A stretch of 64,000 bases of DNA, from the NCBI GenBank assembly GCA_964387615.1, contig CAYLXT010000001.1, forward strand, positions 1,516 through 65,515, read 5' to 3'. The notes under the pieces were generated by a model, which did not search any database, was not told the origin of the DNA, and was given only the letters and a program-made list of their open reading frames with translations. This document shows positions 1-57,803 of the stretch, piece by piece (position 1 is the first letter of the stretch; each line of letters begins with the position of its first letter). Origin of the DNA: an uncultured Ruminococcus sp. Lineage in GTDB: Bacteria > Bacillota > Clostridia > Oscillospirales > Acutalibacteraceae. The translations under genes were made by a program, and so were the position numbers.

Positions 1-741
1 CAGTGGGATATAATCGAAGATATGCACGAGCCGATTATATCAAAGGAAACCTTTTATAAGGCTCATAACATAAGACTGCAACGCGGCAAAGGACAAAAGA
101 TACCGAGCGGTAGCTGTTATTCGCTGGCAAAAAAGGTTTTTTGCGGTGAGTGCGGTAACACAATGTGGAAGATGAGCTACAAGCTTCGTGACGGACGATA
201 TAATTATTTATGTTGCAGAACTCGAAAATCTTCAAACGGAGTTTGCGACAATGAACACAGTATGCGTCTTGACGAATTAGAGCAAATTGTTCTTGATGAA
301 ATAAATAAGCTCTTGGATGCCTATTACGATGAAAAGGCAATCGGTAAAATCAAAGCACCTAAAAAGGATAACAGAGCCCAAAAGTCTATGATTGCAGAAA
401 TTAAGGAACTTGAGGATAAGGTTAAACGCAATGATGCTCGTATGGCTCAAATGTATACTGATAAGCTGGACGGTGTAATCACGGCGGACGAGTTTACAAT
501 TTACCGTGAAAGGTACAAGCAGGAAACAACTGAATTTCAAAATCGCATAAATATTTTAACTGCACACTTAAATCAATTAAGCGGAAACAAGGACAGGACA
601 GACACAAAATTTTTGCTTGATAAGTATAAGCATATCGAAGTGCTGACTTTTGAGATTGCCAATGAATTCATAAACAAAATTCACATTGGAAAGCTGAAAA
701 AGGATGGTAATCGGGAAATAAAAATCGAATGGAAAATTTAG
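1..741 (+). CDS. large serine recombinase, C-terminal part (gene starts upstream of the window)
   Basis: The frame is open from nt 1 (QWDIIEDMHEPIISKETF...). A Cys-rich zinc-ribbon block (CYSLAKKVFCGECGNTMW...YLCC...GVC) is followed by a long coiled-coil tail. This is the architecture of SpoIVCA/SprA/phage large serine integrases. Confidence 0.8.
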   Translation, partial: QWDIIEDMHEPIISKETFYKAHNIRLQRGKGQKIPSGSCYSLAKKVFCGECGNTMWKMSYKLRDGRYNYLCCRTRKSSNGVCDNEHSMRLDELEQIVLDEINKLLDAYYDEKAIGKIKAPKKDNRAQKSMIAEIKELEDKVKRNDARMAQMYTDKLDGVITADEFTIYRERYKQETTEFQNRINILTAHLNQLSGNKDRTDTKFLLDKYKHIEVLTFEIANEFINKIHIGKLKKDGNREIKIEWKI

Positions 742-800
742 TGAAAATCACCGTCTGAAAAAACGACAAATTATGCAATACTAACAAAAAAGTATAGTAT
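742..800. other. candidate element/chromosome junction (att site) between the recombinase gene and truncated cwlD
   Basis: The recombinase stop is at 739-741. The amidase frame opens at 785, right after a TAA at 782-784. The call is positional only; no second att copy is in the window for comparison. Confidence 0.3.
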
Positions 801-1372
801 TAGCGAATGCCTCACACGGTGGGTTTGATGGTGGTGCCTCGGCTGCTGATGGCACGGTTGAGAAGGATATAAATTTGTTAATAGCGACTAAAACTGCACA
901 GATGTTAAGATTTAATGGTTTTAATGTCATTATGACACGTGACAGCGATACCGGTACTGAAGATGATGAGTCACAGGCAATTGCAAAACGCAAAAAAAGC
1001 GATCTTTCCAATCGTCTACAGCTTATGAAGGATAATCCCGACGCACTTTTTGTAAGTATACATCTTAACAAATTTACAACCTCGGCTGCAAATGGCGCAC
1101 AAGTGTTTTATACTAAAAATTACAAAGAAGCCTACAACTTGGCGCAATCCGTACAAAAAAGCATAATAAGTCTTATTCAGCCACAAAATACCCGCGTGGT
1201 AAAGCAGGGAACTGATAGTACATATCTGCTCAAAAATGCGGCTGTACCTGCAATAATTGTAGAATGTGGATTTTTAAGCAATAAGACAGAACTTGAAAAA
1301 CTAAAAAATGATGATTACCAATCGCAAATGGCTTTTGCAATTGTGGGCGGAATAATGGATTATTTAAAATAA
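785..1372 (+). CDS. cwlD: N-acetylmuramoyl-L-alanine amidase, CwlD-like (Amidase_3), 5'-truncated segment
   Basis: The frame reads QKSIVLANASHGGFDGGASAADGTVEKDINL...IHLNKF...VECGFLSN. It begins at the HGG/DGGA metal-ligand motif with no N-terminal anchor and no SD-linked start. The first ATG (875, the ORF-track start) lies downstream of that motif. Confidence 0.75.
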   Translation, partial: QKSIVLANASHGGFDGGASAADGTVEKDINLLIATKTAQMLRFNGFNVIMTRDSDTGTEDDESQAIAKRKKSDLSNRLQLMKDNPDALFVSIHLNKFTTSAANGAQVFYTKNYKEAYNLAQSVQKSIISLIQPQNTRVVKQGTDSTYLLKNAAVPAIIVECGFLSNKTELEKLKNDDYQSQMAFAIVGGIMDYLK

Positions 1373-1383
1373 AAGGAGTTAAT

Positions 1384-2757
1384 ATGGCAGGGAAAATAAA
1401 GACGGTATTTGTTTGTAGTGAGTGTGGCTATGAAACGCCAAAATGGATGGGACAGTGTCCAAATTGTAATGAATGGAATACCTTGGAGGAAGAGGTTATC
1501 GCCGATAAAAAAGCGGTAGGTTCTATGACGTCTACCGCTGTAAAAAGGGTTGTGTCGGGCGCAAAATCCTTATCGGAAATAAACATTACCGATGAACAAC
1601 GATATATTACTGAGATTGGTGAGCTTGATCGTGTTCTCGGCGGTGGTATCGTTAAAGGTTCGGTCGTGCTGCTAAGCGGTGATCCCGGTATTGGTAAATC
1701 AACCATACTTCTGCAAATATGTCACAGTATGCGTGATAAATTAAATATACTTTATGTATCGGGCGAGGAGTCGGCGGTTCAAATAAAGCTTCGCGCAAAG
1801 CGATTGGGCGTATCAGGGGAGAATGTTACCATTATGACCGAAACCGATACACAGGCGATTTGTGAATACATAATGGCGCAAAAACCTGATCTTGTTATGA
1901 TAGACTCGATTCAAACTCTGCAGATAAGTGAGTTATCATCATCAGCAGGCAGTATTGTACAGGTGCGTGAATCAACTAATATGCTGCTGCGCACGGGCAA
2001 ATCACTTGGTATTCCTATTTTTATTGTAGGTCACGTAAACAAGGGCGGCGATATTGCGGGCCCTAAGGTGCTTGAGCATATAGTTGATACTGTGCTTTAT
2101 TTTGAGGGCGAACGCAATCAGTCCTACCGTATATTGCGTGCTATCAAAAATCGCTTTGGCTCTACCAATGAAATCGGCGTTTTTGAAATGCGTGACACAG
2201 GTCTTTGCGAGGTTGAAAACCCTTCTGCTATGCTGCTTTCGGGTAGAATGAGTAATGTGTCGGGCGCATGTATAACCTGCATTATTGAGGGTACACGACC
2301 GATTCTTTCAGAGGTACAGGCTCTCGTTACAACAACAGGCTTTGGCAACCCACGCCGAATGTCAAACGGTTTTGATTATAACCGCTTAAATCTTTTGCTG
2401 GCAATTCTTGAAAAGCGTCAGGGTCTTTATTTTTCAAATCTTGATACATATTTGAATGTTGTCGGAGGTATGCGACTGGACGAGCCTGCCTGCGACCTTG
2501 CCGTTTGTATGGCGTTGGTATCGGGACTGCGTGACACACCGCTTAATGAAAAGCTAATCGCTTTTGGTGAGATTGGTCTTTCCGGAGAAATACGCAGTAT
2601 ATCACGCGTACAAGCCCGTGTGAGCGAGGCGGCGCGTCTTGGCTTTACACAGTGTGTATTACCACGCAGTTGTATTAAGCAAATCACAAAAATGCCAGAT
2701 GGTATTGAATTGATTGGTGTCAGGAATATTAAAGAAGCATTGGCAATTATAAAATAG
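1384..2757 (+). CDS. radA: DNA repair protein RadA/Sms
   Basis: N-terminal CxxC...CxxC zinc finger, Walker A GDPGIGKST, the KNRFG motif and a Lon-like C-terminal domain. Confidence 0.97.
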   Translation: MAGKIKTVFVCSECGYETPKWMGQCPNCNEWNTLEEEVIADKKAVGSMTSTAVKRVVSGAKSLSEINITDEQRYITEIGELDRVLGGGIVKGSVVLLSGDPGIGKSTILLQICHSMRDKLNILYVSGEESAVQIKLRAKRLGVSGENVTIMTETDTQAICEYIMAQKPDLVMIDSIQTLQISELSSSAGSIVQVRESTNMLLRTGKSLGIPIFIVGHVNKGGDIAGPKVLEHIVDTVLYFEGERNQSYRILRAIKNRFGSTNEIGVFEMRDTGLCEVENPSAMLLSGRMSNVSGACITCIIEGTRPILSEVQALVTTTGFGNPRRMSNGFDYNRLNLLLAILEKRQGLYFSNLDTYLNVVGGMRLDEPACDLAVCMALVSGLRDTPLNEKLIAFGEIGLSGEIRSISRVQARVSEAARLGFTQCVLPRSCIKQITKMPDGIELIGVRNIKEALAIIK

Positions 2758-2760
2758 TAA

Positions 2761-2795
2761 AAACCTGTAAGGCTAATCACCTTACAGGTTTTAAA
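2761..2795. terminator. bidirectional intrinsic terminator between convergent radA and upp
   Basis: AAACCTGTAAGG-loop-CCTTACAGGTTT forms a perfect 12-bp stem flanked by A/T runs. Confidence 0.7.
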
Positions 2796-2807
2796 TTTAT
2801 ATTAAAA

Positions 2808-3440
2808 TTATTTTGTACCGAAAATTCTGTCGCCTGCATCGCCAAGACCGGGGAGAATATACGCGTGGTCGTTGAGGCAGTCGTCAAGCCCTGCGCAATA
2901 CACAGGAACATCGGGGTGAGCTTTCGTAAAGGCTTCAATACCTTCAGGCGCTGCGATTATGCACATAAACTTAATTCTTTTTGGGTTAAACTCTTTAATG
3001 CGGGATACCGCGTCAATGGCGCTACCGCCCGTAGCAAGCATAGGGTCAAGCACAAAAACATCACGCTCGGGAATATCTGCGGGTAGTTTGCAATAGTAAT
3101 CTACCGGCTGATGTGTTTCTGGGTCGCGGTACATACCAATGTGTCCCACTTTAGCAGATGGAATAAGGCTGAGCACACCGTCAACCATACCAAGACCTGC
3201 ACGAAGAATTGGTACAAAAGCCATTTTACGACCTGCAAGCACTTTGGTTTTTGCTGTCATCATAGGTGTTTTGGTTGATACCTCGCGAAGAGGAAGATCA
3301 CGCGTCGACTCATAACACATAAGCATTGCGATTTCACTTACAAGCTCGCGGAACTGCTTGGTACCTGTGCGTTCATCACGCAAAATGGTAAGCTTGTGCT
3401 GAATGAGGGGATGGTCCATTACAAATACATTGTCTTTCAT
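2808..3440 (-). CDS. upp: uracil phosphoribosyltransferase
   Basis: [22 protein letters not shown]..., and the PRPP-binding [14 protein letters not shown] motif. Confidence 0.95.
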
Positions 3441-7102: not shown

Positions 7103-7966
7103 ATGTTAGTATCAGCAAAAGAAATGCTTACAAAAGCAAAGGCAGGCAAATATGCCGTAGGTCAGTTTAATATCAACAACCTTGAATGGACCAAGGCTGT
7201 TCTTCTTACCGCGCAGGAGCAGAATTCTCCCGTTATCTTGGGCGTATCTGAAGGCGCAGGTAAATATATGTGTGGCTTTAAAACCGTAGCAGATATGGTT
7301 AAGGCAATGATTGATGAGCTCGGTATCACGGTACCCGTAGCGCTTCATCTTGACCATGGTAGCTATGAAGGCGCTAAAAAGTGCATCGCCGCAGGCTTTT
7401 CATCTGTAATGTTTGATGGCTCACACTATCCGATTGAAGAAAACATAGAAAAAACCAAAGAGCTTGTTGCAACTTGTGATGAACTTGGTCTTTCTTTGGA
7501 AGCCGAGGTTGGCTCTATCGGCGGTGAAGAGGATGGCGTTGTTGGTGCGGGCGAATGCGCAGACCCCAACGAGTGCAAAATGATTGCCGATCTTGGTATT
7601 ACAATGCTTGCTGCGGGTATCGGCAATATTCACGGTAAATATCCTGAAAATTGGGCAGGTCTTAGCTTTGATACTCTTGACGCAATTCAACAGCTTACAG
7701 GCGATATGCCTCTTGTGCTTCACGGCGGTACAGGTATCCCTGCCGATATGATTCAAAAAGCAATTTCTTTGGGTGTTTCAAAGATTAACGTAAATACCGA
7801 ATGTCAATTAGCTTTCGCAGATGCTACACGTAAATATATTGAAGATGGTAAGGACCTTCAGGGTAAGGGATTTGATCCACGTAAGCTTTTGGCTCCCGGC
7901 TTTGAAGCTATTAAGGCTACCGTTAAAGAAAAGATGGAGCTTTTCGGTTCAGTGGGCAAAGCATAA
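7103..7966 (+). CDS. fba: class II fructose-1,6-bisphosphate aldolase
   Basis: GKYAVGQFNINNLEW...LHLDHG...GNIHG...LVLHGGTG are hallmark class II FBA motifs. Confidence 0.96.
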   Translation: MLVSAKEMLTKAKAGKYAVGQFNINNLEWTKAVLLTAQEQNSPVILGVSEGAGKYMCGFKTVADMVKAMIDELGITVPVALHLDHGSYEGAKKCIAAGFSSVMFDGSHYPIEENIEKTKELVATCDELGLSLEAEVGSIGGEEDGVVGAGECADPNECKMIADLGITMLAAGIGNIHGKYPENWAGLSFDTLDAIQQLTGDMPLVLHGGTGIPADMIQKAISLGVSKINVNTECQLAFADATRKYIEDGKDLQGKGFDPRKLLAPGFEAIKATVKEKMELFGSVGKA

Positions 7967-11473: not shown

Positions 11474-12142
11474 ATGGTGGTGTTTTTGATGAGCGATATG
11501 AATAGCGAAAAGGATATTAATGTTGAAGAGAATATTGAGGCGGAAATTGAGCCGAAAGAAATAGCAAAAGATGAAAACGATGTATCGGTTAAAGCCTTTA
11601 TATTTGATTGGCTTGAGGTTTTGGTACACGCCATTATCGCTGTTGTTATCTGTTTCAGTTTTTTATTCCGTATTGCCACCATTGACGGTCCTTCTATGGA
11701 AAATACACTTTTAAATGGCGAAAGGGTAATCATCAGCAATTTATTTTATGAACCAAAGGTTGGCGATATTGTTGTTATTTCCCGTAATAAAGAAAACAGT
11801 GTTTATACTATGAACGATAGCAATACTCCTATTATCAAGAGGATAATTGCTATGGAAGGCCAGACGGTTGATATTGATTTTGAAGAGGGTATTGTTTATG
11901 TAGACGGTATCGCTCTTGATGAGCCTTATACCAAGACCCCAACCAATAGAAAATGGGATATTGAATTTCCGGTAACTGTAGACGAAGGTTGTGTTTTTGT
12001 GTTGGGCGATAACCGTAATGATTCTCTTGATAGCCGCGATGCGCGTATTGGTGAGTACGGTATGATAGACACCCGTTATATTTTAGGTCATGCAGTTTAT
12101 AGAATATTCCCGCTTAACAGGATAGGTAAATTAGATGAGTAA
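11474..12142 (+). CDS. lepB: signal peptidase I
   Basis: GPSMENTL (catalytic Ser box), KRIIAMEG and GDNRNDSLDSR boxes. The ATG at 11489, after GGTGG, is an alternative start. Confidence 0.92.
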   Translation: MVVFLMSDMNSEKDINVEENIEAEIEPKEIAKDENDVSVKAFIFDWLEVLVHAIIAVVICFSFLFRIATIDGPSMENTLLNGERVIISNLFYEPKVGDIVVISRNKENSVYTMNDSNTPIIKRIIAMEGQTVDIDFEEGIVYVDGIALDEPYTKTPTNRKWDIEFPVTVDEGCVFVLGDNRNDSLDSRDARIGEYGMIDTRYILGHAVYRIFPLNRIGKLDE

Positions 12143-21019: not shown

Positions 21020-21042
21020 AATTTGGAGCAGGTGATGGGAAT
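20986..21042. repeat. direct repeat copy 2: 3' end of the intact tRNA-Gly plus its terminator
   Basis: Identical over 57 bp to 20803-20859. Confidence 0.9.
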
Positions 21043-21098
21043 CGAACCCACATAGCCAGCTTGGAAGGCTGGAATTCTAGCCATTGAACTACACCTGC
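21024..21098 (-). tRNA. tRNA-Gly (anticodon UCC), CCA encoded
   Basis: A 75-nt cloverleaf was folded by hand: acceptor GCAGGTG/CACCTGC, D arm GTTC/GAAT, anticodon arm CCAGC-CTTCCAA-GCTGG, and T arm GTGGG-TTCGATT-CCCAT. Confidence 0.93.
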
Positions 21099-47204: not shown

Positions 47205-48050
47205 ATGTCACTAACACTAATGTACATAACAAATAATCCTGTTACGGCAAAAATTGCGCAAGAAGCAGGCGTTGATCGTATTTGGATTGATATGGAATAC
47301 ATAGGCAAAGCCGAGCGACAAGGTGGTATGGACACTGTTCAAAACCATCATACAATTGATGATATCAAACGTATACGACAGGTTGTTACCGAAGCCGATT
47401 TGATGGTTAGAATTAATCCGATACACGATGCTACAGCCGATTATTGTAGTTCGGAAGAAGAGATTAATAAAACAATTGATGCCGGTGCAGACGTAATCAT
47501 GCTTCCTATGTTTAAAACGGCGCAAGAAGTAGAAAAATTTGTAAAATATGTAGATAGTAGAGCAAAGGTACAACTTTTGGTTGAAACGGCAGAAGCCGCT
47601 GAAAATATCGATTCAATACTTGAAATTGGGGGTATTGATGAAATTCATATTGGTCTTAACGACCTGCATCTTTCGTATAATATGACATTTATGTTTGAAT
47701 TATTATGTGATGGTACCATAGCCACTTTGTGTAAAAAAATCGCTGATAGAGGTATAAAATACGGATTTGGCGGTATTGCCAGAGTTGGTTATGGCATGCT
47801 TCCTGCGGAATATATTATTGCCGAACATTATCATTTGGGCTCAACTGCTGCTATACTCTCACGTGGTTTTTGCAATGCTAATTTAGTTAGCGATCCAATG
47901 GATGTTGAAGATATATTTATCGAAGGCGTTAAGAATATCCGACTTAAAGAACTTGAGGTATCAAAATTCACAGAAGAGGAATATCAGAAAAATCTGGATA
48001 TAATTCGCGAAAAGGTAGAAGAAATAATTAAAACTAAAAAGGCGAAATAA
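47205..48050 (+). CDS. HpcH/HpaI aldolase / citrate-lyase-beta family protein
   Basis: TIM-barrel-like pattern GVDRIWIDMEY...RINP...GADVIMLPMFKT...LLVETAEA...IDEIHIGLNDL. The call is by family recognition only. Confidence 0.55.
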   Translation: MSLTLMYITNNPVTAKIAQEAGVDRIWIDMEYIGKAERQGGMDTVQNHHTIDDIKRIRQVVTEADLMVRINPIHDATADYCSSEEEINKTIDAGADVIMLPMFKTAQEVEKFVKYVDSRAKVQLLVETAEAAENIDSILEIGGIDEIHIGLNDLHLSYNMTFMFELLCDGTIATLCKKIADRGIKYGFGGIARVGYGMLPAEYIIAEHYHLGSTAAILSRGFCNANLVSDPMDVEDIFIEGVKNIRLKELEVSKFTEEEYQKNLDIIREKVEEIIKTKKAK

Positions 48051-48053
48051 TTT

Positions 48054-49205
48054 ATGAAAAAAATTTGCATTTGCACCACCGTTGCCGGTACTTTGAAATC
48101 GTTTGTTGTTCCAACCGCGATATATTTACATGAGAAATGTGGTTACGATATTACTTTAATTTGCAATAACGATGATGAATTTAAAAATTCGTTGCCGGAG
48201 TATATTAATTATATACCTGTGAAAATGGCGCGGGGTATTGACCTATCCGGCTTTAAATCAGTGCTTGAGTTTATAAAAATTTTTAAAAAGCAAAAATTTG
48301 ATTTAGTGCAGTATGCTACTCCAAATGCGGCTTGCTATGCAAGCATAGCGGCAAGGTTGTGCAGAGTGCCGATAAGACTTTATTGTCAGTGGGGTATACG
48401 ATATGTTGGTCTTAGCGGACTTTCACGAAAAATATTTAAGTTTTTAGAAAAAATAGTGTGCAAAAATTCAACCGATATTCGCGCAGTTAGTCCAAAAAAT
48501 TTAAAGTTTGCCGTGTCTGAGGGTTTGTACAAGCCGCAAAAAGCCGTTGTTGTTGGTAACGGCGGAACGATCGGTGTTGATATGTTAGAATTTGATATTT
48601 CACAAAAAAATGATTGGAATAATAAAATTCAAAATCAATATAATATAAATCAAAATGACTTAGTTTTTGGTTTTGTTGGTCGAATTTCGGCAGATAAAGG
48701 CTGCAGTGAACTGCTTTCGGCTTTTAAAAATTTAGTTAAAGCCTATGAGAATGTAAAACTTTTAATTGTGGGACCTTTAGAAAATAGTTGTTGTATAGAT
48801 GATACCCTTATCGACTGGGCAAAAAACAATAAAAATATTATTTTTACCGGCAGAGTTGACCATTGCCGAATGTGCGAATTCTATTCTGCAATGGATATTT
48901 TGGTACATCCAACCTATCGCGAGGGATTTGGCATGGTAATACAAGAAGCTGGAGCGTTGGCAGTGCCTGCTATTACCACAACTATTCCCGGTGCATCTGA
49001 GGTTATGGTAAATGGAATTTCTGGTATACATGTGGAACCAAAAAATGTTGATGCTCTTTACTTTGCTATGAAAAGATTTATTGATGAAAATCAATTAGCT
49101 CAAAATCTTGGTAACGAGGCATATAAACGAACTTTAAGTTTATATGAGCGTAGTATTATGTTAGAAAATTTAAAAAATGATTATATAGAATTATTGGGGA
49201 TTTAA
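48054..49205 (+). CDS. glycosyltransferase family 4 (GT-B)
   Basis: GRISADKG...HPTYREGFGMVIQEAGALAVPAITT (EX7E). Confidence 0.85.
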   Translation: MKKICICTTVAGTLKSFVVPTAIYLHEKCGYDITLICNNDDEFKNSLPEYINYIPVKMARGIDLSGFKSVLEFIKIFKKQKFDLVQYATPNAACYASIAARLCRVPIRLYCQWGIRYVGLSGLSRKIFKFLEKIVCKNSTDIRAVSPKNLKFAVSEGLYKPQKAVVVGNGGTIGVDMLEFDISQKNDWNNKIQNQYNINQNDLVFGFVGRISADKGCSELLSAFKNLVKAYENVKLLIVGPLENSCCIDDTLIDWAKNNKNIIFTGRVDHCRMCEFYSAMDILVHPTYREGFGMVIQEAGALAVPAITTTIPGASEVMVNGISGIHVEPKNVDALYFAMKRFIDENQLAQNLGNEAYKRTLSLYERSIMLENLKNDYIELLGI

Positions 49206-49208
49206 CAA

Positions 49209-50138
49209 ATGAAAATAATTTTATCCGATAAAAAATTGGACAAAAGTTTATTTGATGAAACGGTAGAAATCAAATATATTAATATTAAATCACTTTTAGA
49301 TTACGACAATAATCCTGATGTGTTTGCGATTGTTGGCTCTCGCGCAATGGCAAAGACAGCCTCACAAATGAATCTAAAAGGGCTAAAATTTTTTCAACTA
49401 ACAAGCGCGGGTTATGACGGTGTTCCGCTTGATGTTTTTAAAAACAAAGGTATTATCGTTGCCAATGCGGGCGATATCTATAGCGTTCCAATAGCAGAAA
49501 CTGTAGTTTTTGGGATGCTGAGCTTTGCCAAGAGATTGCATAATAATCCTAATAATCGTATTCCTAAAATACAACGTCATTATTCGTTAATTAACGAACT
49601 TTCGGGAAAGAAGGTTATAATTTTAGGCACCGGAAATATAGGAACCGCCATTGCAAAAAGATTATCCGGATTTGATATTACAATTGACGGTTATTCTGTT
49701 GATATAAAAAAACCACCATATTTTGATGAGATGTTTGCGGGAAGAAATACGCTTCTTGATATAATTGATCAGTATGATTATGTAATATCAACATTGCCCG
49801 ACAATGATGAAACACGAGGGTTTTTAAATTTAGAAGTTTTTAATAAAATGAAAAAAGACGTTGTCGTTTTAAATGTCGGCCGAAGGGCTGTATTTAACGA
49901 AAAAGATTTTTATTATGCTTTAAAAACGAAGAAAATAGGCGGAGCGGTTCTTGATGTGTTTGAACTTGTACCTAATCCTATTCAAAATAAATTCAGACGT
50001 CTTCGTAATGTTATTGTTTTGCCCGGAGTAGCTGCAATTTCAAAGGAAGTTAATGCTCGACTTACAATAAAAATTACCAAAAATATAATTTCTTTGATAA
50101 ATGATAATGTTATAGAAAATGTAATTATTGGAGGATAA
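49209..50138 (+). CDS. D-isomer-specific 2-hydroxyacid dehydrogenase family, NAD-binding
   Basis: Rossmann motif ILGTGNIGTAIAKRL. Downstream LNVGRRAV and DVF...P motifs are typical of the family. Confidence 0.8.
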   Translation: MKIILSDKKLDKSLFDETVEIKYINIKSLLDYDNNPDVFAIVGSRAMAKTASQMNLKGLKFFQLTSAGYDGVPLDVFKNKGIIVANAGDIYSVPIAETVVFGMLSFAKRLHNNPNNRIPKIQRHYSLINELSGKKVIILGTGNIGTAIAKRLSGFDITIDGYSVDIKKPPYFDEMFAGRNTLLDIIDQYDYVISTLPDNDETRGFLNLEVFNKMKKDVVVLNVGRRAVFNEKDFYYALKTKKIGGAVLDVFELVPNPIQNKFRRLRNVIVLPGVAAISKEVNARLTIKITKNIISLINDNVIENVIIGG

Positions 50139-50139
50139 A

Positions 50140-51111
50140 ATGTTTTTTAGTGTTATTGTTCCTGTATACAATGTAGAAAAATATCTCCGTGAATGTGTCG
50201 ATAGTATTTTAGCGCAGACATTTAAAGATTTTGAGTTGATTCTCGTTAATGACGGAAGTAAAGACAACAGCGGTATGATATGTGATGAATACGCTGATAA
50301 AGATGAAAGAATAAAAGTTATTCACAAGGAAAATGGCGGAATTTCTGATGCACGTAATGTTGGAACGCTTTCGGCCAAGGGTGAATATGTTGTTTATATT
50401 GATAGCGACGATTATATATCAGATGTTGATTTTCTTCAAAATGTTTTTGCGAAAGCACAAGGCGGTGCTGAAATTATTTGCTATAAATTTAAAAAATATT
50501 TCGAAGAAACACGGACTTTTTCAAAGTGCAATTTCGAATTCCCTGATTTATGCTTGTTTAAAACTTTTTCGGAACGTATAAACTATCTTGTTAAAACGGA
50601 TTCATTTTATTGTTCGGCGTGGTCAAAATCAGTTAAACTAAGCCTTTTGAAAGATAATAATATTGAATTTGAAAGAGGATTACTTGGTGAAGATCAAGAA
50701 TGGTACTACCATGTGCTTTTAAAGGCACATTCTATTGACGGAATTGATAAAGATTATATTGTTTATCGACAAAGAGAAAACTCCATAACATCCTCTTGGA
50801 AAATGAAAAATCTTACAGATTGTATATATATAATCGATAAATGGCAACAACAAATAACTATTGCAGATATTAGCGTTGATTATAAAAATTCACTATTAAA
50901 TTCAATTGCGAAGCTTTATTGTAATTTGTTAATTGGATATGTCAGATTTGGTGACAAAAACAAAAAATCACAATATATTAAGTTAAAAAAACTTTCACAT
51001 TTATTTAATTACGACCTTAATCCAAGAGTTGCAATCATTAGTAAAATTTATAAAATCTTTGGTTTTGATGTAACACTGTTACTATTAAAGATAATTTGTA
51101 AGGTTAGATAA
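50140..51111 (+). CDS. glycosyltransferase family 2
   Basis: FSVIVPVYNVEKYLRECVDSIL...LILVNDGSKDNS...YIDSDD (DxD). Confidence 0.88.
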   Translation: MFFSVIVPVYNVEKYLRECVDSILAQTFKDFELILVNDGSKDNSGMICDEYADKDERIKVIHKENGGISDARNVGTLSAKGEYVVYIDSDDYISDVDFLQNVFAKAQGGAEIICYKFKKYFEETRTFSKCNFEFPDLCLFKTFSERINYLVKTDSFYCSAWSKSVKLSLLKDNNIEFERGLLGEDQEWYYHVLLKAHSIDGIDKDYIVYRQRENSITSSWKMKNLTDCIYIIDKWQQQITIADISVDYKNSLLNSIAKLYCNLLIGYVRFGDKNKKSQYIKLKKLSHLFNYDLNPRVAIISKIYKIFGFDVTLLLLKIICKVR

Positions 51112-51115
51112 GAAT

Positions 51116-52411
51116 ATGAATAAAACTAAATTACCTAAAGTTTTGGTTGTTTCAACAAATGCGTGGCGGGATAATACTGGTATTAACACATTAATAGAGT
51201 TTTTTAAATGTTGGAATCCTGAGAGTATTGCTCAGATATATACTAAATCTGCGCTACCTAATACCAAAATATGCAACAATTTTTTTCGCATCTCCGAAAG
51301 CAAAATGATTAAAAGTGTATTTAACCGAAAGATTAAAACAGGCGATTGGGTTGTTAATACAAAAGATGATACTAACAACTCCGAGTTTATTGATGAAAAA
51401 AGCCGATATAACAATACAAAATCAGGTAGTGCCCGCGCTATTATGCGTTTTTTTCGTGAATTAGTATGGAAATTTGGAAAATGGAAAACGGCAGAGCTTG
51501 ATGCGTTTATCGAAAATTTTGATGCTGATGTGCTTTTCATTCCTGTTTATCCAACGATATATATGGGCAGAATACAAAAATATATCATCAAAAAAACGGG
51601 AAAGCCTGTTGTATCATATTTGGCGGACGATAACTATACATATAAGTCTATCAGTAAAAATCCTTTTTCTGTTATTAAACGCTTTTTTTTACGAAGATAT
51701 GTCAAATTTATTGTCGATAATAGTAACAAGCTGTTAGTTATTGCACCAAAACAAAAGGAAGAATACGACCGCATTTTCAATAAAAATAGCATCGTAATGA
51801 CCAAAGGAATAGATTTTGAAGAATTTGTTCCATACAAGCCGCAAACTCCAATTAAAATGGTGTATACCGGCAAGCTGATAATTGGGCGTTGGAAATCACT
51901 TGCTTCAATTGCAAAAGCACTCGAAAAAATCAATTTCAATGGTGTAAAGGCCGAGCTTGATATCTATACAACCGATCTACTCACTCCTGAACAAAGCAAA
52001 GCTTTAAATACCGGTAGTAGTAGTGTAAAAGGCGCGTTAACTTTAGACGAGGTTAAAGAAGTTCAAAGCAAAGCCGATATTCTCGTTTTTGTAGAAAGTC
52101 TTGAAAAAAAATATAAAAACGCGGCACGGCTATCTTTTTCCACAAAGATTACCGATTATTTAAAAAGTGGAAAGTGTATTTTTGCTATTGGGGACAAGGA
52201 TATTGCGCCAATTGATTATTTTAATAAACACGATTCAGCAATTACAGCCTCTTCTTATGATGAGATTGAAGAAAAAATTAAATTGCTTATTGATAATTCT
52301 AATCTTATTATAAAATATAGCCGAAGAGCTCATGAATGTGGTATTAAATTTCATAATAGAAGTGTGACAAATAATTTATTAATTAAAGTTATTAATGACG
52401 CAATTATATGA
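51116..52411 (+). CDS. hypothetical protein, possibly a divergent GT-B-fold transferase
   Basis: There is no clear catalytic motif. The C-terminal half (KMVYTGKL...ADILVFVESL...STKITDYL) has a Rossmann-like GT-B flavour only. Confidence 0.35.
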   Translation: MNKTKLPKVLVVSTNAWRDNTGINTLIEFFKCWNPESIAQIYTKSALPNTKICNNFFRISESKMIKSVFNRKIKTGDWVVNTKDDTNNSEFIDEKSRYNNTKSGSARAIMRFFRELVWKFGKWKTAELDAFIENFDADVLFIPVYPTIYMGRIQKYIIKKTGKPVVSYLADDNYTYKSISKNPFSVIKRFFLRRYVKFIVDNSNKLLVIAPKQKEEYDRIFNKNSIVMTKGIDFEEFVPYKPQTPIKMVYTGKLIIGRWKSLASIAKALEKINFNGVKAELDIYTTDLLTPEQSKALNTGSSSVKGALTLDEVKEVQSKADILVFVESLEKKYKNAARLSFSTKITDYLKSGKCIFAIGDKDIAPIDYFNKHDSAITASSYDEIEEKIKLLIDNSNLIIKYSRRAHECGIKFHNRSVTNNLLIKVINDAII

Positions 52412-52470
52412 TTTGATATAAGTTTTGGTTAAACTTGAATTTTTAAGTATATTTTTATAACGGGAGTGTT

Positions 52471-53673
52471 TTGGTGAAAGTAGTGCAAATAAATTCAACA
52501 TATTCCGGCAGCACGGGTTCAATAATGCTTTCTTTGGCAGAGGTTTTTGATCTTGAAGGATATGAAAATTATTTTGCTGTTCCAGAGGTATATTTAAAAA
52601 AAGATTTATCGTATAATCATTTTAAAATTGGTAATTCGTTTGATAGGAAATACCATGCTTTATATGCGAGAATAATCGGTAAGCAAGGTTATTGTTCAAA
52701 AACAGCAACAAAAAAACTTATAAATTGGATCGACTGCATTTCTCCCGATGTAATTATGTTACATAACATACACAGCAATTTTATAAATTTAAACATTCTT
52801 TTTAAATATATTAAGAAAAAACAGGTAAAGACTGTTTTGGTGATGCATGACTGTTGGCTTTTTACCGGAAAATGTTATCATTATTTATACAGTGGTTGCC
52901 AAAAGTGGAAAAATGGTTGTGAAAATTGTCCGCAATTAGATATTGAACAAAAATCTTTCTTTTTTGACAAAACTTGCAGTGTATTACGAGATAAAAAAGA
53001 ACTTATTGGCGAAAATTTGAATATCTATATTGTTGCTGTTTCAGAGTGGTTGGCCAGTCAAGTTGAAAATTCAATTTTATCGGCAAGACCTATGAAGGTT
53101 ATAAAAAACGGTATTGATTTGACTGTGTTTTACCCACGAGATACTGCAAGACAGCGTCTAGGTATTGATACGAATAAGTTTATAATTCTTGGAATGGCAA
53201 ACAAGTGGCTTTCGTCAGAGAATAAGGAAACATTTGATGCGGTTGTTCAGTCGCTGTCTAAAGATGATTTGTTAATTATTGTTGGTTGCGATAAATCAAA
53301 ACTATCCTCTTCAACTGACAAAATTAAATATATGGAAAAAATTAGCGCTGAAAAATTAGCTGAGTATTATTCTGCAGTTGATGTTTTTGTAAATATTACA
53401 AAAGCGGATACTTTGCCGACGGTTAATATGGAATCGATTGCGTGTGGAACACCGGTAATTACATATAATTCAGGCGGGAGCGGGGAGCTTATAAAGCATA
53501 ACATGACCGGATATATTGTGAATTATGGCGATGCGTCAGAATTGATAAAAGCAATAAAATGTGTTAAAACAAACGGAAAATCTTTTTATTCAAAAAACTG
53601 CATCGAATACGCAGCAGAATATTTTGACAAAAATAAGAATTTTAAAGAGTATATCAACTTTATTATTCAATAA
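52471..53673 (+). CDS. glycosyltransferase family 4 (GT-B)
   Basis: Start is TTG 52471 or GTG 52474, after GGGAG. The product contains TLPTVNMESIACGTPVITYNSGGSGELI. Confidence 0.8.
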   Translation: MVKVVQINSTYSGSTGSIMLSLAEVFDLEGYENYFAVPEVYLKKDLSYNHFKIGNSFDRKYHALYARIIGKQGYCSKTATKKLINWIDCISPDVIMLHNIHSNFINLNILFKYIKKKQVKTVLVMHDCWLFTGKCYHYLYSGCQKWKNGCENCPQLDIEQKSFFFDKTCSVLRDKKELIGENLNIYIVAVSEWLASQVENSILSARPMKVIKNGIDLTVFYPRDTARQRLGIDTNKFIILGMANKWLSSENKETFDAVVQSLSKDDLLIIVGCDKSKLSSSTDKIKYMEKISAEKLAEYYSAVDVFVNITKADTLPTVNMESIACGTPVITYNSGGSGELIKHNMTGYIVNYGDASELIKAIKCVKTNGKSFYSKNCIEYAAEYFDKNKNFKEYINFIIQ

Positions 53674-53701
53674 AATATTATGTTTTTCTTTAGGAGTAAA
53701 A

Positions 53702-54760
53702 ATGGGAATTTATTTATGCGCTTTTTTCACATTGGTAGTCGCAAAGATTTCTAATGTTGTTAATAATGCAAAAAACAACAAAAAATTCATTTGCATTTTT
53801 TGGGGTTTAATTTATTTTTTAATTGCCGCTTTGCGTGGACGAAATATTGGTGGAGATACAGATATTTATGTTAATTCTTTTTATATTGTTTCAAGTCTTC
53901 CATATAAAGAAGCGGCTCAATATATAGGCAGAGATCCATTTTTTTATGTGTTTATATCTTTCGTAGGGAAAATATGGTGTAATTATACTTTTTTATTTTC
54001 TATTGTTGCCTTTTTGTTTACATCAGCTATTACTTATTTTATATATAAATATTCGGATGATCCTTTTTTAAGTTGGATTATTATGCTGGCTTTTAATCTG
54101 TACCAGTTTTCGCTTACTGCTATGAGGCAGACTATTGCTATCTCGTTTATAATATTCGCTAGCAGTTTTTTGATTGAAAAAAAATTTTTCAGAGGTTTGA
54201 TTTTTGTATTTATTGCTTCGCTATTTCATAAAACTGCGTTATGTTTTTTGCTCGTGTTTATTTTTTATAAAGTCAAAATAAGCAAGACGTTTCTTTACTT
54301 TTCGTTTGTATTATTGGGAATTACTTATTCTTTTAGGTCTCAGATTGCTGAAATATTTTTTCAATTTTTTAATGAAGACGGTAGAGAATTTTTTGTTGAA
54401 AACAGAAACGCAGGTTTTACAATGCTTTTAGTAATTGCTGCAATTTACGTTTTTTGTGTAATATTTGTAAAAAAAGAGTGGTTGAAAGAATCAGAAATAG
54501 CGCAAAAAATGTTTGTTCTGTCTTTTTTTGCTTTAATTTTTGAAACGTTAGTTCCTTCACAATCTATATTTTTTAGATTTGCGTTCTATTTCTTATTTGG
54601 TTTTACTGCTTTATTGCCAAATATGATAAATAATTGTATTATTGATTCTAAGAAAACAGTATACGCCATATTTTTTGTTGTATTATCTATTCAATATCTT
54701 TTTTTCACGATTGGTTCTTGTCATATTACACCATATTGTACATTTTGGCAAGCATCATAA
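53702..54760 (+). CDS. EpsG-family membrane protein (Wzy-type repeat-unit polymerase candidate)
   Basis: The ATG at 53702 follows TAGGAG. It is a protein of about 10 TM segments with LTAMRQTIAISFIIFA, the EpsG RQ motif. Confidence 0.8.
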   Translation: MGIYLCAFFTLVVAKISNVVNNAKNNKKFICIFWGLIYFLIAALRGRNIGGDTDIYVNSFYIVSSLPYKEAAQYIGRDPFFYVFISFVGKIWCNYTFLFSIVAFLFTSAITYFIYKYSDDPFLSWIIMLAFNLYQFSLTAMRQTIAISFIIFASSFLIEKKFFRGLIFVFIASLFHKTALCFLLVFIFYKVKISKTFLYFSFVLLGITYSFRSQIAEIFFQFFNEDGREFFVENRNAGFTMLLVIAAIYVFCVIFVKKEWLKESEIAQKMFVLSFFALIFETLVPSQSIFFRFAFYFLFGFTALLPNMINNCIIDSKKTVYAIFFVVLSIQYLFFTIGSCHITPYCTFWQAS

Positions 54761-54793
54761 TGATTTATATTTGAAAGGTCAGGTAGCTTTTTA

Positions 54794-55801
54794 ATGAAAC
54801 CATTAGTTAGTATGATCGTACCGGTATATAATTGCGAAAAATATATCAAGGAATGCATTGAGAGTTTACGTCGTCAGAGTTATAATAATATAGAAATTAT
54901 CATTGTTAATGACGGCTCGAAAGATAATTCAGGTTTAATATGTGACGAAATTGCTGAAAGTGATAGTCGGATATTGGTTTTACATATCGAAAATAATGGA
55001 GTTGCAAATGCAAGAAATCTTGGCATTTCTATAGCAAAAGGAGAATATATTGCCTTTTGTGACAGTGATGACATTATGGCGCCTGACTTTATCGAGGAAG
55101 CCGTAAGTGTTATTGAAAATGCTGATTATGTATCTGGCGCATTTAAAACATTAAAAAAAAATAATGAAAATGATTTAATCGATTATATGTATGAATACGA
55201 TAAATTCGTAGATCATAACGATTATTTTAAAAGAATGTCCAAATATCAGGCTGGTGCTTATTGGGGTGCAAATTGGGGTAAGCTTTTCAAATCTAGTATT
55301 ATAAAAGAAAAAGGTATTTTATTTGAATCAAATGTTGATTTTGCAGAGGATTTTCGTTTTAATCTAGAATATTTAAAATATGTAGATAAAATTGCTATTA
55401 TTCATAAACCGGTATATTACTACAGAATTGACACAAGTGGTTCACTTTCAAAGAAATGTGGAAATGCAGAAAAATTTTGGCAAGAATACTTGGAATTGTA
55501 TTATCGCTGTAAGGAACTTTATTGTATGAGTGGTATTTTTGATGAGGTTCAAGTCGAACTTGCTTCATTTATTATTGTTGCATATATTACTGCTATGCGG
55601 CGAGCAATTTATTCAATTACAAGTCTGACTGAAATTTTTGAATTCTCTCGAAGAATTGAACTCTGCTCTGAAGTGGTGGATGCTGCAAAATTTTATAAGC
55701 AAATGTCCGGAAGCACACGAATATATGGAAAGTTAATTTATTTTAAAAAATTGAACATTGTTGCCATTATATTGTTGCTAAGAAAATTTTTCAAATTTTA
55801 A
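54794..55801 (+). CDS. glycosyltransferase family 2
   Basis: VSMIVPVYNCEKYIKECIESL...IIIVNDGSKDNS...FCDSDD. Confidence 0.88.
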   Translation: MKPLVSMIVPVYNCEKYIKECIESLRRQSYNNIEIIIVNDGSKDNSGLICDEIAESDSRILVLHIENNGVANARNLGISIAKGEYIAFCDSDDIMAPDFIEEAVSVIENADYVSGAFKTLKKNNENDLIDYMYEYDKFVDHNDYFKRMSKYQAGAYWGANWGKLFKSSIIKEKGILFESNVDFAEDFRFNLEYLKYVDKIAIIHKPVYYYRIDTSGSLSKKCGNAEKFWQEYLELYYRCKELYCMSGIFDEVQVELASFIIVAYITAMRRAIYSITSLTEIFEFSRRIELCSEVVDAAKFYKQMSGSTRIYGKLIYFKKLNIVAIILLLRKFFKF

Positions 55802-55826
55802 AATCGTTTTTTAAAGGAGTCTATAT

Positions 55827-57776
55827 ATGTTAAACGAAGTTTTGCAATATAGTAGCGAAAAAACAATTAAATGTCTTTTTTTGGACTTTTTCGGAACGGT
55901 TGTGCAGAGAAATTGTGATCCTGAAGAGATTAAGTATTTATGGGCAAAGAGATTGGCTTTTAATCTTAATTTTTTGATTGATGAAAATAGATTATTAATT
56001 CTCAGAAAAAAATCAGAGCAAGCTGTAATTAAAAGATCAGAAAATGGTGAGTTTAATTTTTTAGAACTTTCCACCGAAATATATAGTAGACTAATATCTT
56101 TAATCCCAGAGTTTAAAAACAAATATAATGTTGAGGAATTTTATTCACTTTCACATAAAATTGAAATTGGATCTGAATATGATAGTCAAAATTATATAGG
56201 TGAAACTATAGAATTGATTAATATATGTCATTCGAACGGAATTCGTATAAATATTATTTCCGATTTTTATTTAAGCAAAGATGATATCGAAATTTTTTTA
56301 AAAAAAGATGATATTTACAAAAAAATAGATAATATTTTTGTTTCCTGTGACCATAGAATATCCAAGCGAAATGGTGAATTGTATAATTATGCTTGCAAAC
56401 AATTAGGTTTTAGCGCATCACAATGCATAATGGTTGGTGATAATCCAATATCTGATATTAAAAATGCAGAAAGTTTTGGCATAAAAGGCTTTTTGATGAA
56501 CACTTGTGATGGGATAAACCAACGAAAAAATATAAAAAACAAAATTGTAAGTATATCAAAAAAAAATTTAAAAGGCGAGGGACGATATACCAACTATTGC
56601 TTTTTACTTTATTTGTATATAGAGCGACTATATAAGATTTTGATTTTTGAAGGCATAACTGACATATTTTTTTTATCACGCGAGGGCGAGTTCTTAAAAA
56701 AATTATTTGATTTATATCTTAAAAACAGAAATGATAAAAATATTCGTACGCATTATTTGTATGTTTCGAGAAAATCAACATATCCTGCAACGTTAAAAAA
56801 TCTTGATGAAGAGAAATTTGATTTATTAAGAAAATTCAAAGCAATTTCTGTAGAAGATTTTTTAGACAATATAGGTATGTCTAGCGCTTTAAACGAATTG
56901 AATTTAAACAAGTATGATACAACAAGTCCAATAATTGATTTTTTTAACTCAAAAGAGTTTTTGGAACTTATTGCAAGAGAAGATTTTCAAAAACTATATG
57001 AGTCTTCAAGAATAAAATACAATACCTTGTTTAAAAAATATTGTTTACAAACAGGATTCGTGTCAAATAATATCATAGCAATTGCCGATGTTGGCTGGGC
57101 GGGGACGATGCAAGATAATATTTGTAAGGCTCTTAACGGTATTGATTGTGTTGGTTTATATGTCGGTTTGGTCAATGGTGCTGTTCAAAATTCCAACAGC
57201 AGAAAAAAAGGCTTGGTTTTTTCAGAAACACCATTAGATTCTAAAGATTTAAAAATTTGGAAATACGATAGTGCTTTTTTAGAACGTGTGCTCTGGGCAA
57301 GTCATGATGCTACCGATCATTATGAAGTATTGGACGATAACACGGTTGTGCCTGTTTTTAAAAATTATTCAAGCGAAACAAATAATTATAAATTAATTAG
57401 TCCCTTACAAAATGAAATTTTTAAAAAATTTGATGAGTTGGATAATGTATTGATAAAATCTTGTTTTACTTGCGAAAATTTTTATGACGATTTTTTAAAA
57501 ATACATATACGCATGCTATTTTTACTTAATAATAAACAGTTGGAATTTCAAAGAAAAATGATTGATGGGCAAATGCAAAATTTTGGGCATATTGATTCAG
57601 CTGGAAAAACCATTGGTACAACTTTTTCTATAAAAAGAATCTTTAAAAAAATATGGAATAATCTTTGCGTTTTGAAAAATTGTGAGATTATTTTCAGAAT
57701 TTTACTTAACTACAATCAAAAATTTTTAATTAGATTGATGTACTTTTTCTATTATCAAAAAATTAAAAAATTATAA
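55827..57776 (+). CDS. HAD-like N-terminal domain fused to a roughly 400-aa domain of unknown function
   Basis: The RBS is AAGGAG. Motif I is degenerate (FLDFFGTV), motif II is IISDF, and motif IV is VGDNPISD. The rest of the protein has no recognisable motif. Confidence 0.6.
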   Translation: MLNEVLQYSSEKTIKCLFLDFFGTVVQRNCDPEEIKYLWAKRLAFNLNFLIDENRLLILRKKSEQAVIKRSENGEFNFLELSTEIYSRLISLIPEFKNKYNVEEFYSLSHKIEIGSEYDSQNYIGETIELINICHSNGIRINIISDFYLSKDDIEIFLKKDDIYKKIDNIFVSCDHRISKRNGELYNYACKQLGFSASQCIMVGDNPISDIKNAESFGIKGFLMNTCDGINQRKNIKNKIVSISKKNLKGEGRYTNYCFLLYLYIERLYKILIFEGITDIFFLSREGEFLKKLFDLYLKNRNDKNIRTHYLYVSRKSTYPATLKNLDEEKFDLLRKFKAISVEDFLDNIGMSSALNELNLNKYDTTSPIIDFFNSKEFLELIAREDFQKLYESSRIKYNTLFKKYCLQTGFVSNNIIAIADVGWAGTMQDNICKALNGIDCVGLYVGLVNGAVQNSNSRKKGLVFSETPLDSKDLKIWKYDSAFLERVLWASHDATDHYEVLDDNTVVPVFKNYSSETNNYKLISPLQNEIFKKFDELDNVLIKSCFTCENFYDDFLKIHIRMLFLLNNKQLEFQRKMIDGQMQNFGHIDSAGKTIGTTFSIKRIFKKIWNNLCVLKNCEIIFRILLNYNQKFLIRLMYFFYYQKIKKL

Positions 57777-57803
57777 TTAAATAGATTGGGATTGAATTTA
57801 AAT

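Follow-up and report, generated by a model that had tools for sequence, protein, structure and literature searches.

A candidate sporulation-gene intervening element in cwlD of an uncultured Ruminococcus sp.

A truncated cwlD gene beside a large serine recombinase gene

The stretch analyzed here, referred to as the window, comprises 64,000 nt of contig CAYLXT010000001.1 from an uncultured Ruminococcus sp. (assembly GCA_964387615.1, positions 1,516 to 65,515). It opens within the gene of a large serine recombinase (LSR) that reads toward a copy of the amidase gene cwlD lacking its 5′ end. We consider it likely that a non-phage integrative element has its right end at this junction, inserted in cwlD as a sporulation-gene intervening element from which the gene is rebuilt by excision. 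The features at the junction, all on the forward strand, are:

1-741 (+): 3′ 741 nt of the LSR gene (the last 246 of 528 codons, and the stop; Pfam)
742-791 (+): spacer inside the element, from the LSR stop to the att site (comparison of loci)
792-840 (+): attR, composed of the P arm GTATAGTATTAGCGAATGCCTCA (792-814), the crossover in the His codon CAC (815-817; dinucleotide CA at 815-816) and the B′ arm GGTGGGTTTGATGGTGGTGCCTC of host cwlD
815-1372 (+): 3′ cwlD (185 codons), which begins at the His of HGGFDGGA, a zinc ligand, and ends at the stop (Amidase_3, TIGR02883)
1384-2757 (+): radA, a conserved cwlD neighbor that marks the chromosomal side (Pfam)

The LSR open reading frame (ORF) ends with TAG at 739-741, and its 5′ end lies beyond the window start. 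Within the element it occupies the right end, and it is transcribed toward the cwlD junction. The fragment in the window matches the Pfam families Recombinase, Zn_ribbon_recom and DUF4368, and locus L005, which is 100% identical to the window, supplies the whole 528-aa ORF; both agree with the initial annotation, which took the gene ending at 741 for the C-terminal half of an LSR. Full-length relatives carry Resolvase, Recombinase and Zn_ribbon domains, which fits the LSR plan of an N-terminal resolvase catalytic domain followed by a Recombinase domain, zinc ribbon and coiled coil in about 500 aa. The closest solved relative is SprA/YokA of SPβ (9dxh), to which the 528-aa protein aligns over residues 9-506, and the LSR also matches the integrase family PHROG 95 (1e-99). 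The top NCBIfam match of the window fragment is NF041201 (XisF).

Beyond a TAA at 782-784, the amidase frame is open from 785 (QKSIVLANASHGGFDGGASAADG...) to the stop at 1370-1372. The residues encoded by 785-1369 match Amidase_3 at 1.3e-45 and the spore_cwlD model TIGR02883 with 198 bits over model positions 2-189 of 189. No in-frame ATG, GTG or TTG occurs between 785 and 875; codon 875-877 is TTG and the first in-frame ATG is at 902, and a start at either would delete the HGG/DGGA motif. The initial annotation had described a 5′-truncated cwlD shortly after an LSR gene, and every feature that it listed is present where it placed it, with the exception that the codon at 875 had been read as the first ATG; its point that a start there removes the motif holds.

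We searched a collection of 5.8 billion proteins for homologs of the amidase and considered the top 120 clusters among thousands of matches. Most of the closest homologs (79-92% identity) are 231-236 aa long and start M(N)MLKRFTPQLALLAIICLIAAF...TIIIDAGHGGFDGGA. These intact orthologs carry about 49 additional N-terminal residues, which form a membrane anchor and the first amidase strand and end in ...IIIDAGHGG. The natural start is therefore not at 785-875 (according to the initial annotation, orthologs that start there would have spoken against a split gene), and the window copy lacks its start codon, transmembrane anchor and first β-strand (~49 codons). Approximately one quarter of the top 120 clusters are only 189-209 aa long; most of those read start (MEN)IVLANASHGGFDGG or a near variant, as in the window, and one of 204 aa (P0033) retains the native IIIDAGHGG and is merely shortened at its N-terminus.

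The intact orthologs have the architecture of CwlD, with an N-terminal membrane anchor and a single Amidase_3 domain. The top PDB match is C. difficile CwlD (7RAG_B, 1.8e-37; next amidase 1.9e-21), and TIGR02883 is the best family by far (next amidase model, 75-85 bits). The TIGR02883 cutoff of 221.55 is reached neither by the window fragment (198 bits) nor by intact orthologs and the joined proteins described below (206-211 bits), and the name cwlD therefore rests on architecture and best match rather than on a curated threshold. CwlD is a spore-cortex amidase required for muramic-δ-lactam formation and hence for germination, and its loss blocks germination in both B. subtilis and C. difficile. 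C. difficile cwlD is under σE control (PMC3789822).

The crossover site and the missing 5′ half

The exact boundary is given by comparison with L011, a locus from a metagenome-assembled genome (MAG) of another species (radA 79% identical to that of the window at the nucleotide level) that carries a 99%-identical LSR. Over nt 1-817 the two sequences share 98.5-100% identity, which drops to 78% from 818 onward; the first host-side mismatch is at 820. This places the boundary at the His codon CAC (815-817), and 785-814 is element DNA, namely the att P arm, which encodes QKSIVLANAS and is in frame with the amidase by happenstance. Thus the frame does open at 785, as initially annotated, but the boundary between gene and element that had been placed there moves to the His codon.

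The attachment sites were compared between loci. The intact site in L007 reads GACGCAGGC-CAC-GGCGGGTTTGAC, attR sites read TATAGTATTRGCTAAYNNNNNN-CAC-GGNGGNTTYGA, and attL sites read GAYGCAGGN-CAC-GCGGCATTAGAAAATACTATAG (type A) or the same followed by GGCGGGTTAACTAATACTA (type B). The reconstructed attP consists of imperfect inverted repeats (TATAGTATTGGCTAATGCC / GGCATTAGAAAATACTATA) centered on the CA of the His codon. L046 has CAC in attL and CAT in attR, such that CA alone is common to both, as expected for the 2-nt crossover of an LSR. Short sites (~40-50 bp), imperfect dyad symmetry of attP and a 2-nt crossover are all features of LSR attachment sites, and the reconstructed attP and the CA core agree with them. 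The P arm is conserved in more than 50 loci. The ~50-nt spacer at 742-791 is common to the window, L011 and most type-B elements, and is deleted in elements of the L001/L008/L010 type, whose LSR stop lies inside the P arm; the window element is thus mixed, its LSR and P arm being of type A and its spacer type-B-like.

The P arm is in frame with cwlD at window positions 785-814 and at the equivalent positions of all attR sites, and it encodes IVLANAS, which mimics the native first β-strand IIIDAG. This likeness probably follows from the similarity of the attP and attB half-sites. In L001/L008 a GTG start yields an 'amidase' ORF of 195-198 aa that gene callers report. One might suppose from the mimicked strand and from the in-frame GTG of some elements ('VENIVLANASHGG', overlapping the LSR stop in L001/L008) that the 3′ half is expressed alone as an anchor-less amidase. 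We give this very little credence: the window and most type-B elements have a stop directly before the frame and no start until the TTG at 875, the product would be without a signal anchor for reaching the cortex, and the resemblance of the strands is already predicted by the half-sites.

A survey of the LSR clade with one genome per GTDB species returned 59 loci, mostly from MAGs of Acutalibacteraceae or other Oscillospirales from animal and human guts. The cwlD 3′ half lies directly downstream of the LSR (≥45% identity) in 52 of the 59; here the LSR stop precedes the same His codon by 20-80 nt (rarely more), and radA follows. The association persists where identity is as low as 46% for the LSR and 41% for CwlD. 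Recurrence of the same junction in 52 of 59 loci, with an isolate genome among them, is not a matter of chance. LSRs of about 40% identity showed no association with cwlD (L062, L064 and 76 of 80 metagenome loci), indicating that the link to cwlD is clade-specific.

Four metagenome loci with LSRs of ~40% identity (L078, L089, L093 and L137) have, after the LSR, an ORF for the C-terminal ~70 aa of a CotJC-like Mn-catalase. This remnant follows the LSR directly (~11,530-11,900) and covers positions 147-198 of 284 in Pfam Mn_catalase. A sister LSR clade may split another sporulation gene, cotJC, for which we found no report of a split gene in the full-text literature.

We sought the missing 5′ halves with a profile of the 48 N-terminal residues of CwlD and recovered 28 separate 5′-fragment ORFs of 55-79 aa. 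In all but one, ...IIIDAGH (or HGG) is the last cwlD sequence, and the element contributes a further 6-18 residues before the stop; the exception (P0124, 79 aa) continues into native cwlD sequence. None of the 28 matches the N-terminus expected for the window strain, so the window's own attL was not found. The 890-nt gap upstream of the L001 LSR module likewise contains no 5′ fragment, because that element is ~30 kb long.

Both cwlD halves lie on one contig in five related assemblies, 3.9-24.3 kb apart. On JAZOGF010000002.1 (L009/L010) they are on the same strand, separated by 24,349 nt. Four further whole cases came from a motif scan of all fetched loci. Among them is Marasmitruncus massiliensis Marseille-P3646 (L056), an isolate genome that has its split cwlD on a 2.08-Mb contig, with the 5′ fragment at 7584-7736 and the 3′ part from 11605 (distance 3,871 nt); on NZ_FYDE01000005.1, its attL and attR His codons are at ~1,902,344 and ~1,906,215. 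The others are a relative of M. massiliensis (L057, 3.9 kb), L046 (7.7 kb) and L063 (8.3 kb). The halves have the same orientation in all five cases, and joining them in silico at the His codon (shared CA) restores a single uninterrupted CwlD (~234 and 252 aa; 206-211 bits against TIGR02883).

L007 is an empty site and a close relative of the split locus L008 (cwlD 3′ parts 97.7% identical at the nucleotide level). The genes downstream of cwlD in the window (radA, upp, rpiB, tsaB and tsaE) have the same order at this intact locus. The initial annotation had proposed that the window starts inside an LSR-bearing element within cwlD, and had suggested looking for a separate 5′ fragment, one continuous Amidase_3 ORF after joining, and a short shared core. 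All three are found in relatives, the core being CA, and together with the intact orthologs and the empty site they back that proposal. Of the three outcomes that it had named as refuting, none was encountered within the reach of the data.

These data also bear on whether the junction is an assembly chimera or a decayed remnant without a partner fragment. The window ends inside the recombinase gene with its left side beyond the data, and most of the comparators are MAGs. However, the junction is identical in L005 and L006, two independent Logan assemblies of the same strain as the window (short contigs that were reached via a 165-aa truncated amidase ORF), and the architecture recurs in more than 50 independent assemblies that include the 2.08-Mb contig of the isolate. 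An artifact or remnant is thus hardly credible.

Several loci depart from the simple arrangement. In L034, from one Hadza-gut MAG, the cwlD 5′ fragment and attL are inverted (128-330, minus strand) and lie ~1 kb upstream of a module at 949-3352 with the order small ORF, LSR, attR, 3′ cwlD. In this arrangement, recombination would invert the intervening DNA to restore cwlD instead of excising it, although misassembly is possible in this single assembly. In L060 (6280-6560), a 46%-identical LSR abuts a cwlD 5′ fragment on the opposite strand that keeps HGGY; elements of this lineage insert the other way round, and their crossover lies ~10 nt further into the same motif.

Tandem stacking is seen on JAZQFX010000016.1 (L069:1573-1620 and L012:11583-11610), where a hybrid site, P(type B)-CAC-P′(type A), comes after a type-B LSR; ~30.4 kb beyond it lie a type-A LSR, its attR and the 3′ half of cwlD. 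A second element entering the attL of a resident one would produce this layout. L053 (9446-11640) looks like a minimal first element (~2.1 kb) followed by another. An intact attP-like site (P arm-CAC-P′ arm) is located just past an apparently chimeric LSR in L066 (9085-9135) and could be either an unintegrated copy or another tandem junction.

Cargo, mobility and a proposed route to excision

Cargo is common to different elements solely as blocks adjoining the recombination module. The 24.3-kb element encodes PFOR, a DsbH-like thioredoxin protein, HipA-like, HTH, AAA, S8 peptidase, NUDIX, acetyl/methyltransferase, AraC/GyrI and sigma-70-like proteins. The ~30.4-kb type, which is closest to the window in its LSR (94-95% identity), encodes HTH, Fic, HipA-like, CBM30, AraC, GH16, Yip1, DUF5696 and GH3 proteins. 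Smaller elements carry ThiF and a PP-loop ATPase (3.9 kb), LtrA, Fe-ADH, flavin reductase, FAD oxidoreductase and a HipA-like protein (7.7 kb), or DUF4886, TIM-barrel, GFO-IDH-MocA and AraC proteins (8.3 kb). The interrupting DNA can thus be a non-phage island with carbohydrate-utilization, redox and toxin-antitoxin genes. Genes for HipA-like kinases recur across otherwise unrelated cargo (L009:17394-18428, L046:11659-12756 and L069:2056-4568), with Fic/DOC in one, and may act as addiction modules that stabilize the islands.

The initial annotation had also allowed for a prophage in cwlD, active or defective, like SPβ in spsM. LSRs often serve as phage integrases (PHROG 95), distant relatives of this LSR (≤40% identity) occur in 559 phage records, and the interior of the window element lies beyond the data. 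Nevertheless, the whole and near-whole relatives carry only metabolic, regulatory and toxin-antitoxin-like genes, with no phage or conjugation genes (no capsid, tail, terminase or lysis genes) among them, and with the patterns used neither an LSR relative nor an attP was found in IMG/VR. A prophage is therefore very unlikely.

A small ORF of 60-69 aa (45 aa in Marasmitruncus) is located immediately upstream of the LSR in all 37 loci whose sequence reaches that far and in M. massiliensis, overlapping the LSR start codon in most. It has no Pfam, PHROG or PDB match and is a candidate recombination directionality factor. ACAT(T/A)AA-N14-(C/A)ATAAAcAT occurs upstream of it in 31 of the 37 loci, ~25 nt before the ribosome-binding site, and the upstream regions are otherwise unrelated between element groups. 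The strict motif has 38 matches in the 2.06 Mb of DNA fetched, of which 31 are at this position. Mother-cell σE promoters have an ATA-type −35 and a CATA-type −10 in C. difficile (PMC3789822), and at the level of consensus the conserved motif appears σE-like. Sequences resembling the σE consensus also precede cwlD itself, namely GCATATA-N14-CATATAAT in L009 and TAATAAA-N14-CATAAAAT in L007.

A second motif, TTGAAA-N17-TATAAT, lies within the small ORF in 35 of the 37 loci, 50-62 nt before the LSR ATG (e.g. L051:9914-9942 and L001:8342-8370). It is kept at the nucleotide level across element types although the encoded residues differ (L-E-I vs I-E-K), and it resembles a near-consensus σA promoter. 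With such a layout, vegetative cells would make only the LSR, and the mother cell would make both it and the small protein. In the C. difficile skin element, the directionality factor CD1234 is σE-controlled and the recombinase is not (PMC3789822), and the layout seen here has the same logic as that established for SprA/SprB, CD1231/CD1234 and GirC/GirX.

The elements are mobile. L001 and L008 have LSRs that are 98.4% identical and radA genes that are 81% identical, and across loci the median synonymous difference is 0.46 for the LSR vs 0.73 for radA, with a correlation of r = 0.02. LSR and host divergence are thus uncorrelated, indicating that elements move between species. Co-divergence of LSR and host, which would have been proof that the split state is inherited vertically over the long term, was not found; the few apparent pairs are no closer than random pairs of type-B LSRs.

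The genes themselves are well preserved. All 28 LSRs analyzed are exactly 528 aa long, with pN/pS of ~0.06. All 55 split cwlD 3′ halves are uninterrupted (182-202 codons) with invariant zinc and catalytic residues (H1, E16, H83 and E150), and dN/dS is 0.04-0.10 in close pairs. This argues that split cwlD stays useful, although it falls short of proof because the insertions may be recent.

A rival reading is plain inactivation, in which a codon of cwlD serves as a handy attB, the gene is knocked out and excision serves horizontal transfer alone. Movement between species, the polymorphic presence of elements among close relatives, and a conserved protein motif as a broad-host-range target are all compatible with this view. 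We think it unlikely, however, because the ORF and catalytic residues are kept, with low dN/dS, in every one of the 55 3′ halves and in every recovered 5′ fragment, and because the promoter of the small ORF and LSR is conserved as σE-like rather than σA-like. Moreover, CwlD loss would be strongly counter-selected, yet a spore-former in culture has the gene split, as do 52 of the genomes that represent GTDB species.

We therefore favor the element as a sporulation-gene intervening element and propose the following route. The LSR would have recombined attP with an attB at the His codon of the zinc-binding HGG motif in cwlD. The 49 5′ codons and the cwlD promoter would then be found beyond the window, at the left end of the element; the attL there is expected to read ...ATHATHGAYGCNGGNCAC joined to a GCGGCATTAGAAAATACTATAG-like arm. 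In the mother cell, the σE-type promoter would transcribe the small ORF and the LSR, and the two proteins would recombine attL and attR at the CA dinucleotide. The element would leave as a circle and cwlD would be rebuilt in frame, whereas the forespore chromosome would keep the element. The σA-type promoter inside the small ORF might in turn yield LSR alone, which would be the integration-competent state. We infer excision itself, its mother-cell-specific and sporulation-linked timing, the role of the small ORF and the sigma factors from the comparisons above; for excision during sporulation, as the initial annotation suggested, the σE-like motifs and the signs of selection give indirect backing.

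Several observations weigh against this interpretation. The left end, cargo and 5′ fragment of the window element lie outside the data, and these genomes might hold a second, intact cwlD elsewhere. Even intact orthologs score slightly under the NCBIfam CwlD cutoff. No excised form was found in public contigs: a search with the attP pattern for excised circles or free attP gave 0 matches in IMG/VR and JGI metagenome contigs, and the attP-like sites in L066 and L069 are best read as tandem junctions. The small ORF has no similarity to known directionality factors, and the sigma-factor assignments come from consensus resemblance alone. Finally, horizontal movement means that many insertions are possibly recent, which weakens the argument from selection.

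It is conceivable, if unlikely, that the elements are actively spreading islands with metabolic cargo, not domesticated relics, and use sporulation as a transfer stage. Elements excised in the mother cell by the σE-driven module would be released by its lysis, taken up across the Oscillospirales, inserted under σA-driven LSR expression into the universally conserved HGG codon of cwlD and stacked in tandem (L069/L012 and L053), with the sister clade doing likewise at cotJC. In genomes such as L034, the recombinase would restore cwlD through inversion.

The intervening-element hypothesis is directly testable, since M. massiliensis Marseille-P3646 is cultured and spore-forming (PMC9584879) and its element is only 3.9 kb long. 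LSRs with their attP and attB sites are used for genome-integration tools, and the family supplies dozens of such natural sets, in which the 2-nt core is defined and the small ORF is a candidate directionality factor. Gene callers report cwlD as truncated or missing in such MAGs, and predictions of sporulation capacity can be misled.

No sporulation-specific genes were found among 20 other window ORFs, which are housekeeping genes and a polysaccharide cluster. The 5-40 kb region is otherwise housekeeping (fba, signal peptidase, ylqF, thrC, tig, clpX, priA, rsmB, PASTA kinase and comEC), and a single tRNA gene (21027-21098, minus strand) is the sole Rfam match in the window. At ~48,000-60,000, G+C falls to 27-31% vs ~39% elsewhere inside a polysaccharide-biosynthesis cluster that encodes a LegC-type aminotransferase, ATP-grasp, a GT4 glycosyltransferase, a HAD-domain protein, WecB epimerase and several family-less ORFs, as is typical of a variable surface-glycan locus.

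Comparison with known intervening elements

We found no prior report of a split cwlD in the full-text literature, in which most subscription journals are not covered, in agreement with the guess in the initial annotation that cwlD was not a described target; the same searches found sigK, spsM, spoVFB, spoVR, gerE and yabG. With cwlD added to this short list of split sporulation genes, the phenomenon extends beyond the Bacillus and Clostridium models and is common in uncultured gut Oscillospirales.

The closest analog is gin, a non-phage element that interrupts gerE in Bacillus cereus ATCC 10987 and encodes the LSR GirC and a 42-aa directionality factor, GirX. GirC integrates alone and excision needs GirX; both are expressed in mid-sporulation (PMC5595907). 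Both gin and the cwlD element are non-phage elements in a sporulation gene with a tiny motif-less protein encoded beside the LSR. The cwlD element differs in that it hits a cortex enzyme rather than a transcription factor, its hosts are gut Oscillospirales rather than Bacillus, its cargo can be as little as 2 genes or as much as ~30 kb of metabolic genes, and a σA-like promoter lies within its small ORF, which runs into the LSR start.

SPβ splits B. subtilis spsM, and the gene is rebuilt in the mother cell, where the directionality factor SprB is under mother-cell control and the integrase SprA is expressed more broadly (PMC4191935, PMC5499854). Here too the LSR lies at the element end, and SprA is the closest solved relative, but identity to SprA is low (E = 1e-14 over full length). 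SPβ is also a functional 134-kb phage. The crossover of the cwlD element is a 2-nt core inside a catalytic-motif codon.

The skin elements in sigK of B. subtilis (SpoIVCA/Skr) and C. difficile (CD1231/CD1234) are excised in development by an LSR and a small directionality factor (PMC5025042, PMC6957869), and the promoter layout of the cwlD element suggests the same logic. Unlike skin, which is a defective prophage in a sigma-factor gene, the cwlD elements interrupt a late structural enzyme and form a family far more varied in cargo and host range. Sporulation genes are also split by recombinase-bearing elements in the case of yin, in yabG of a single C. botulinum strain (PMC10747680), and of vfbin and vrin, in spoVFB and spoVR as cited in PMC6957869. 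These are prophage-like, and yin is found in one strain, whereas cwlD elements occur in 52 of the scanned GTDB species-representative genomes. The fdxN element of Anabaena provides a more remote parallel: in a cell that is terminally differentiated, the LSR XisF (NF041201) removes it from within a gene. However, the window LSR scores 50 bits vs a cutoff of 375 for this family, and the organism and developmental program are unrelated.

The gene cwlD is most likely a new target gene of a known kind of element. What sets it apart is that an enzyme gene is hit at its catalytic codon, in at least 52 species-level lineages, by elements that carry metabolic cargo and stack in tandem.

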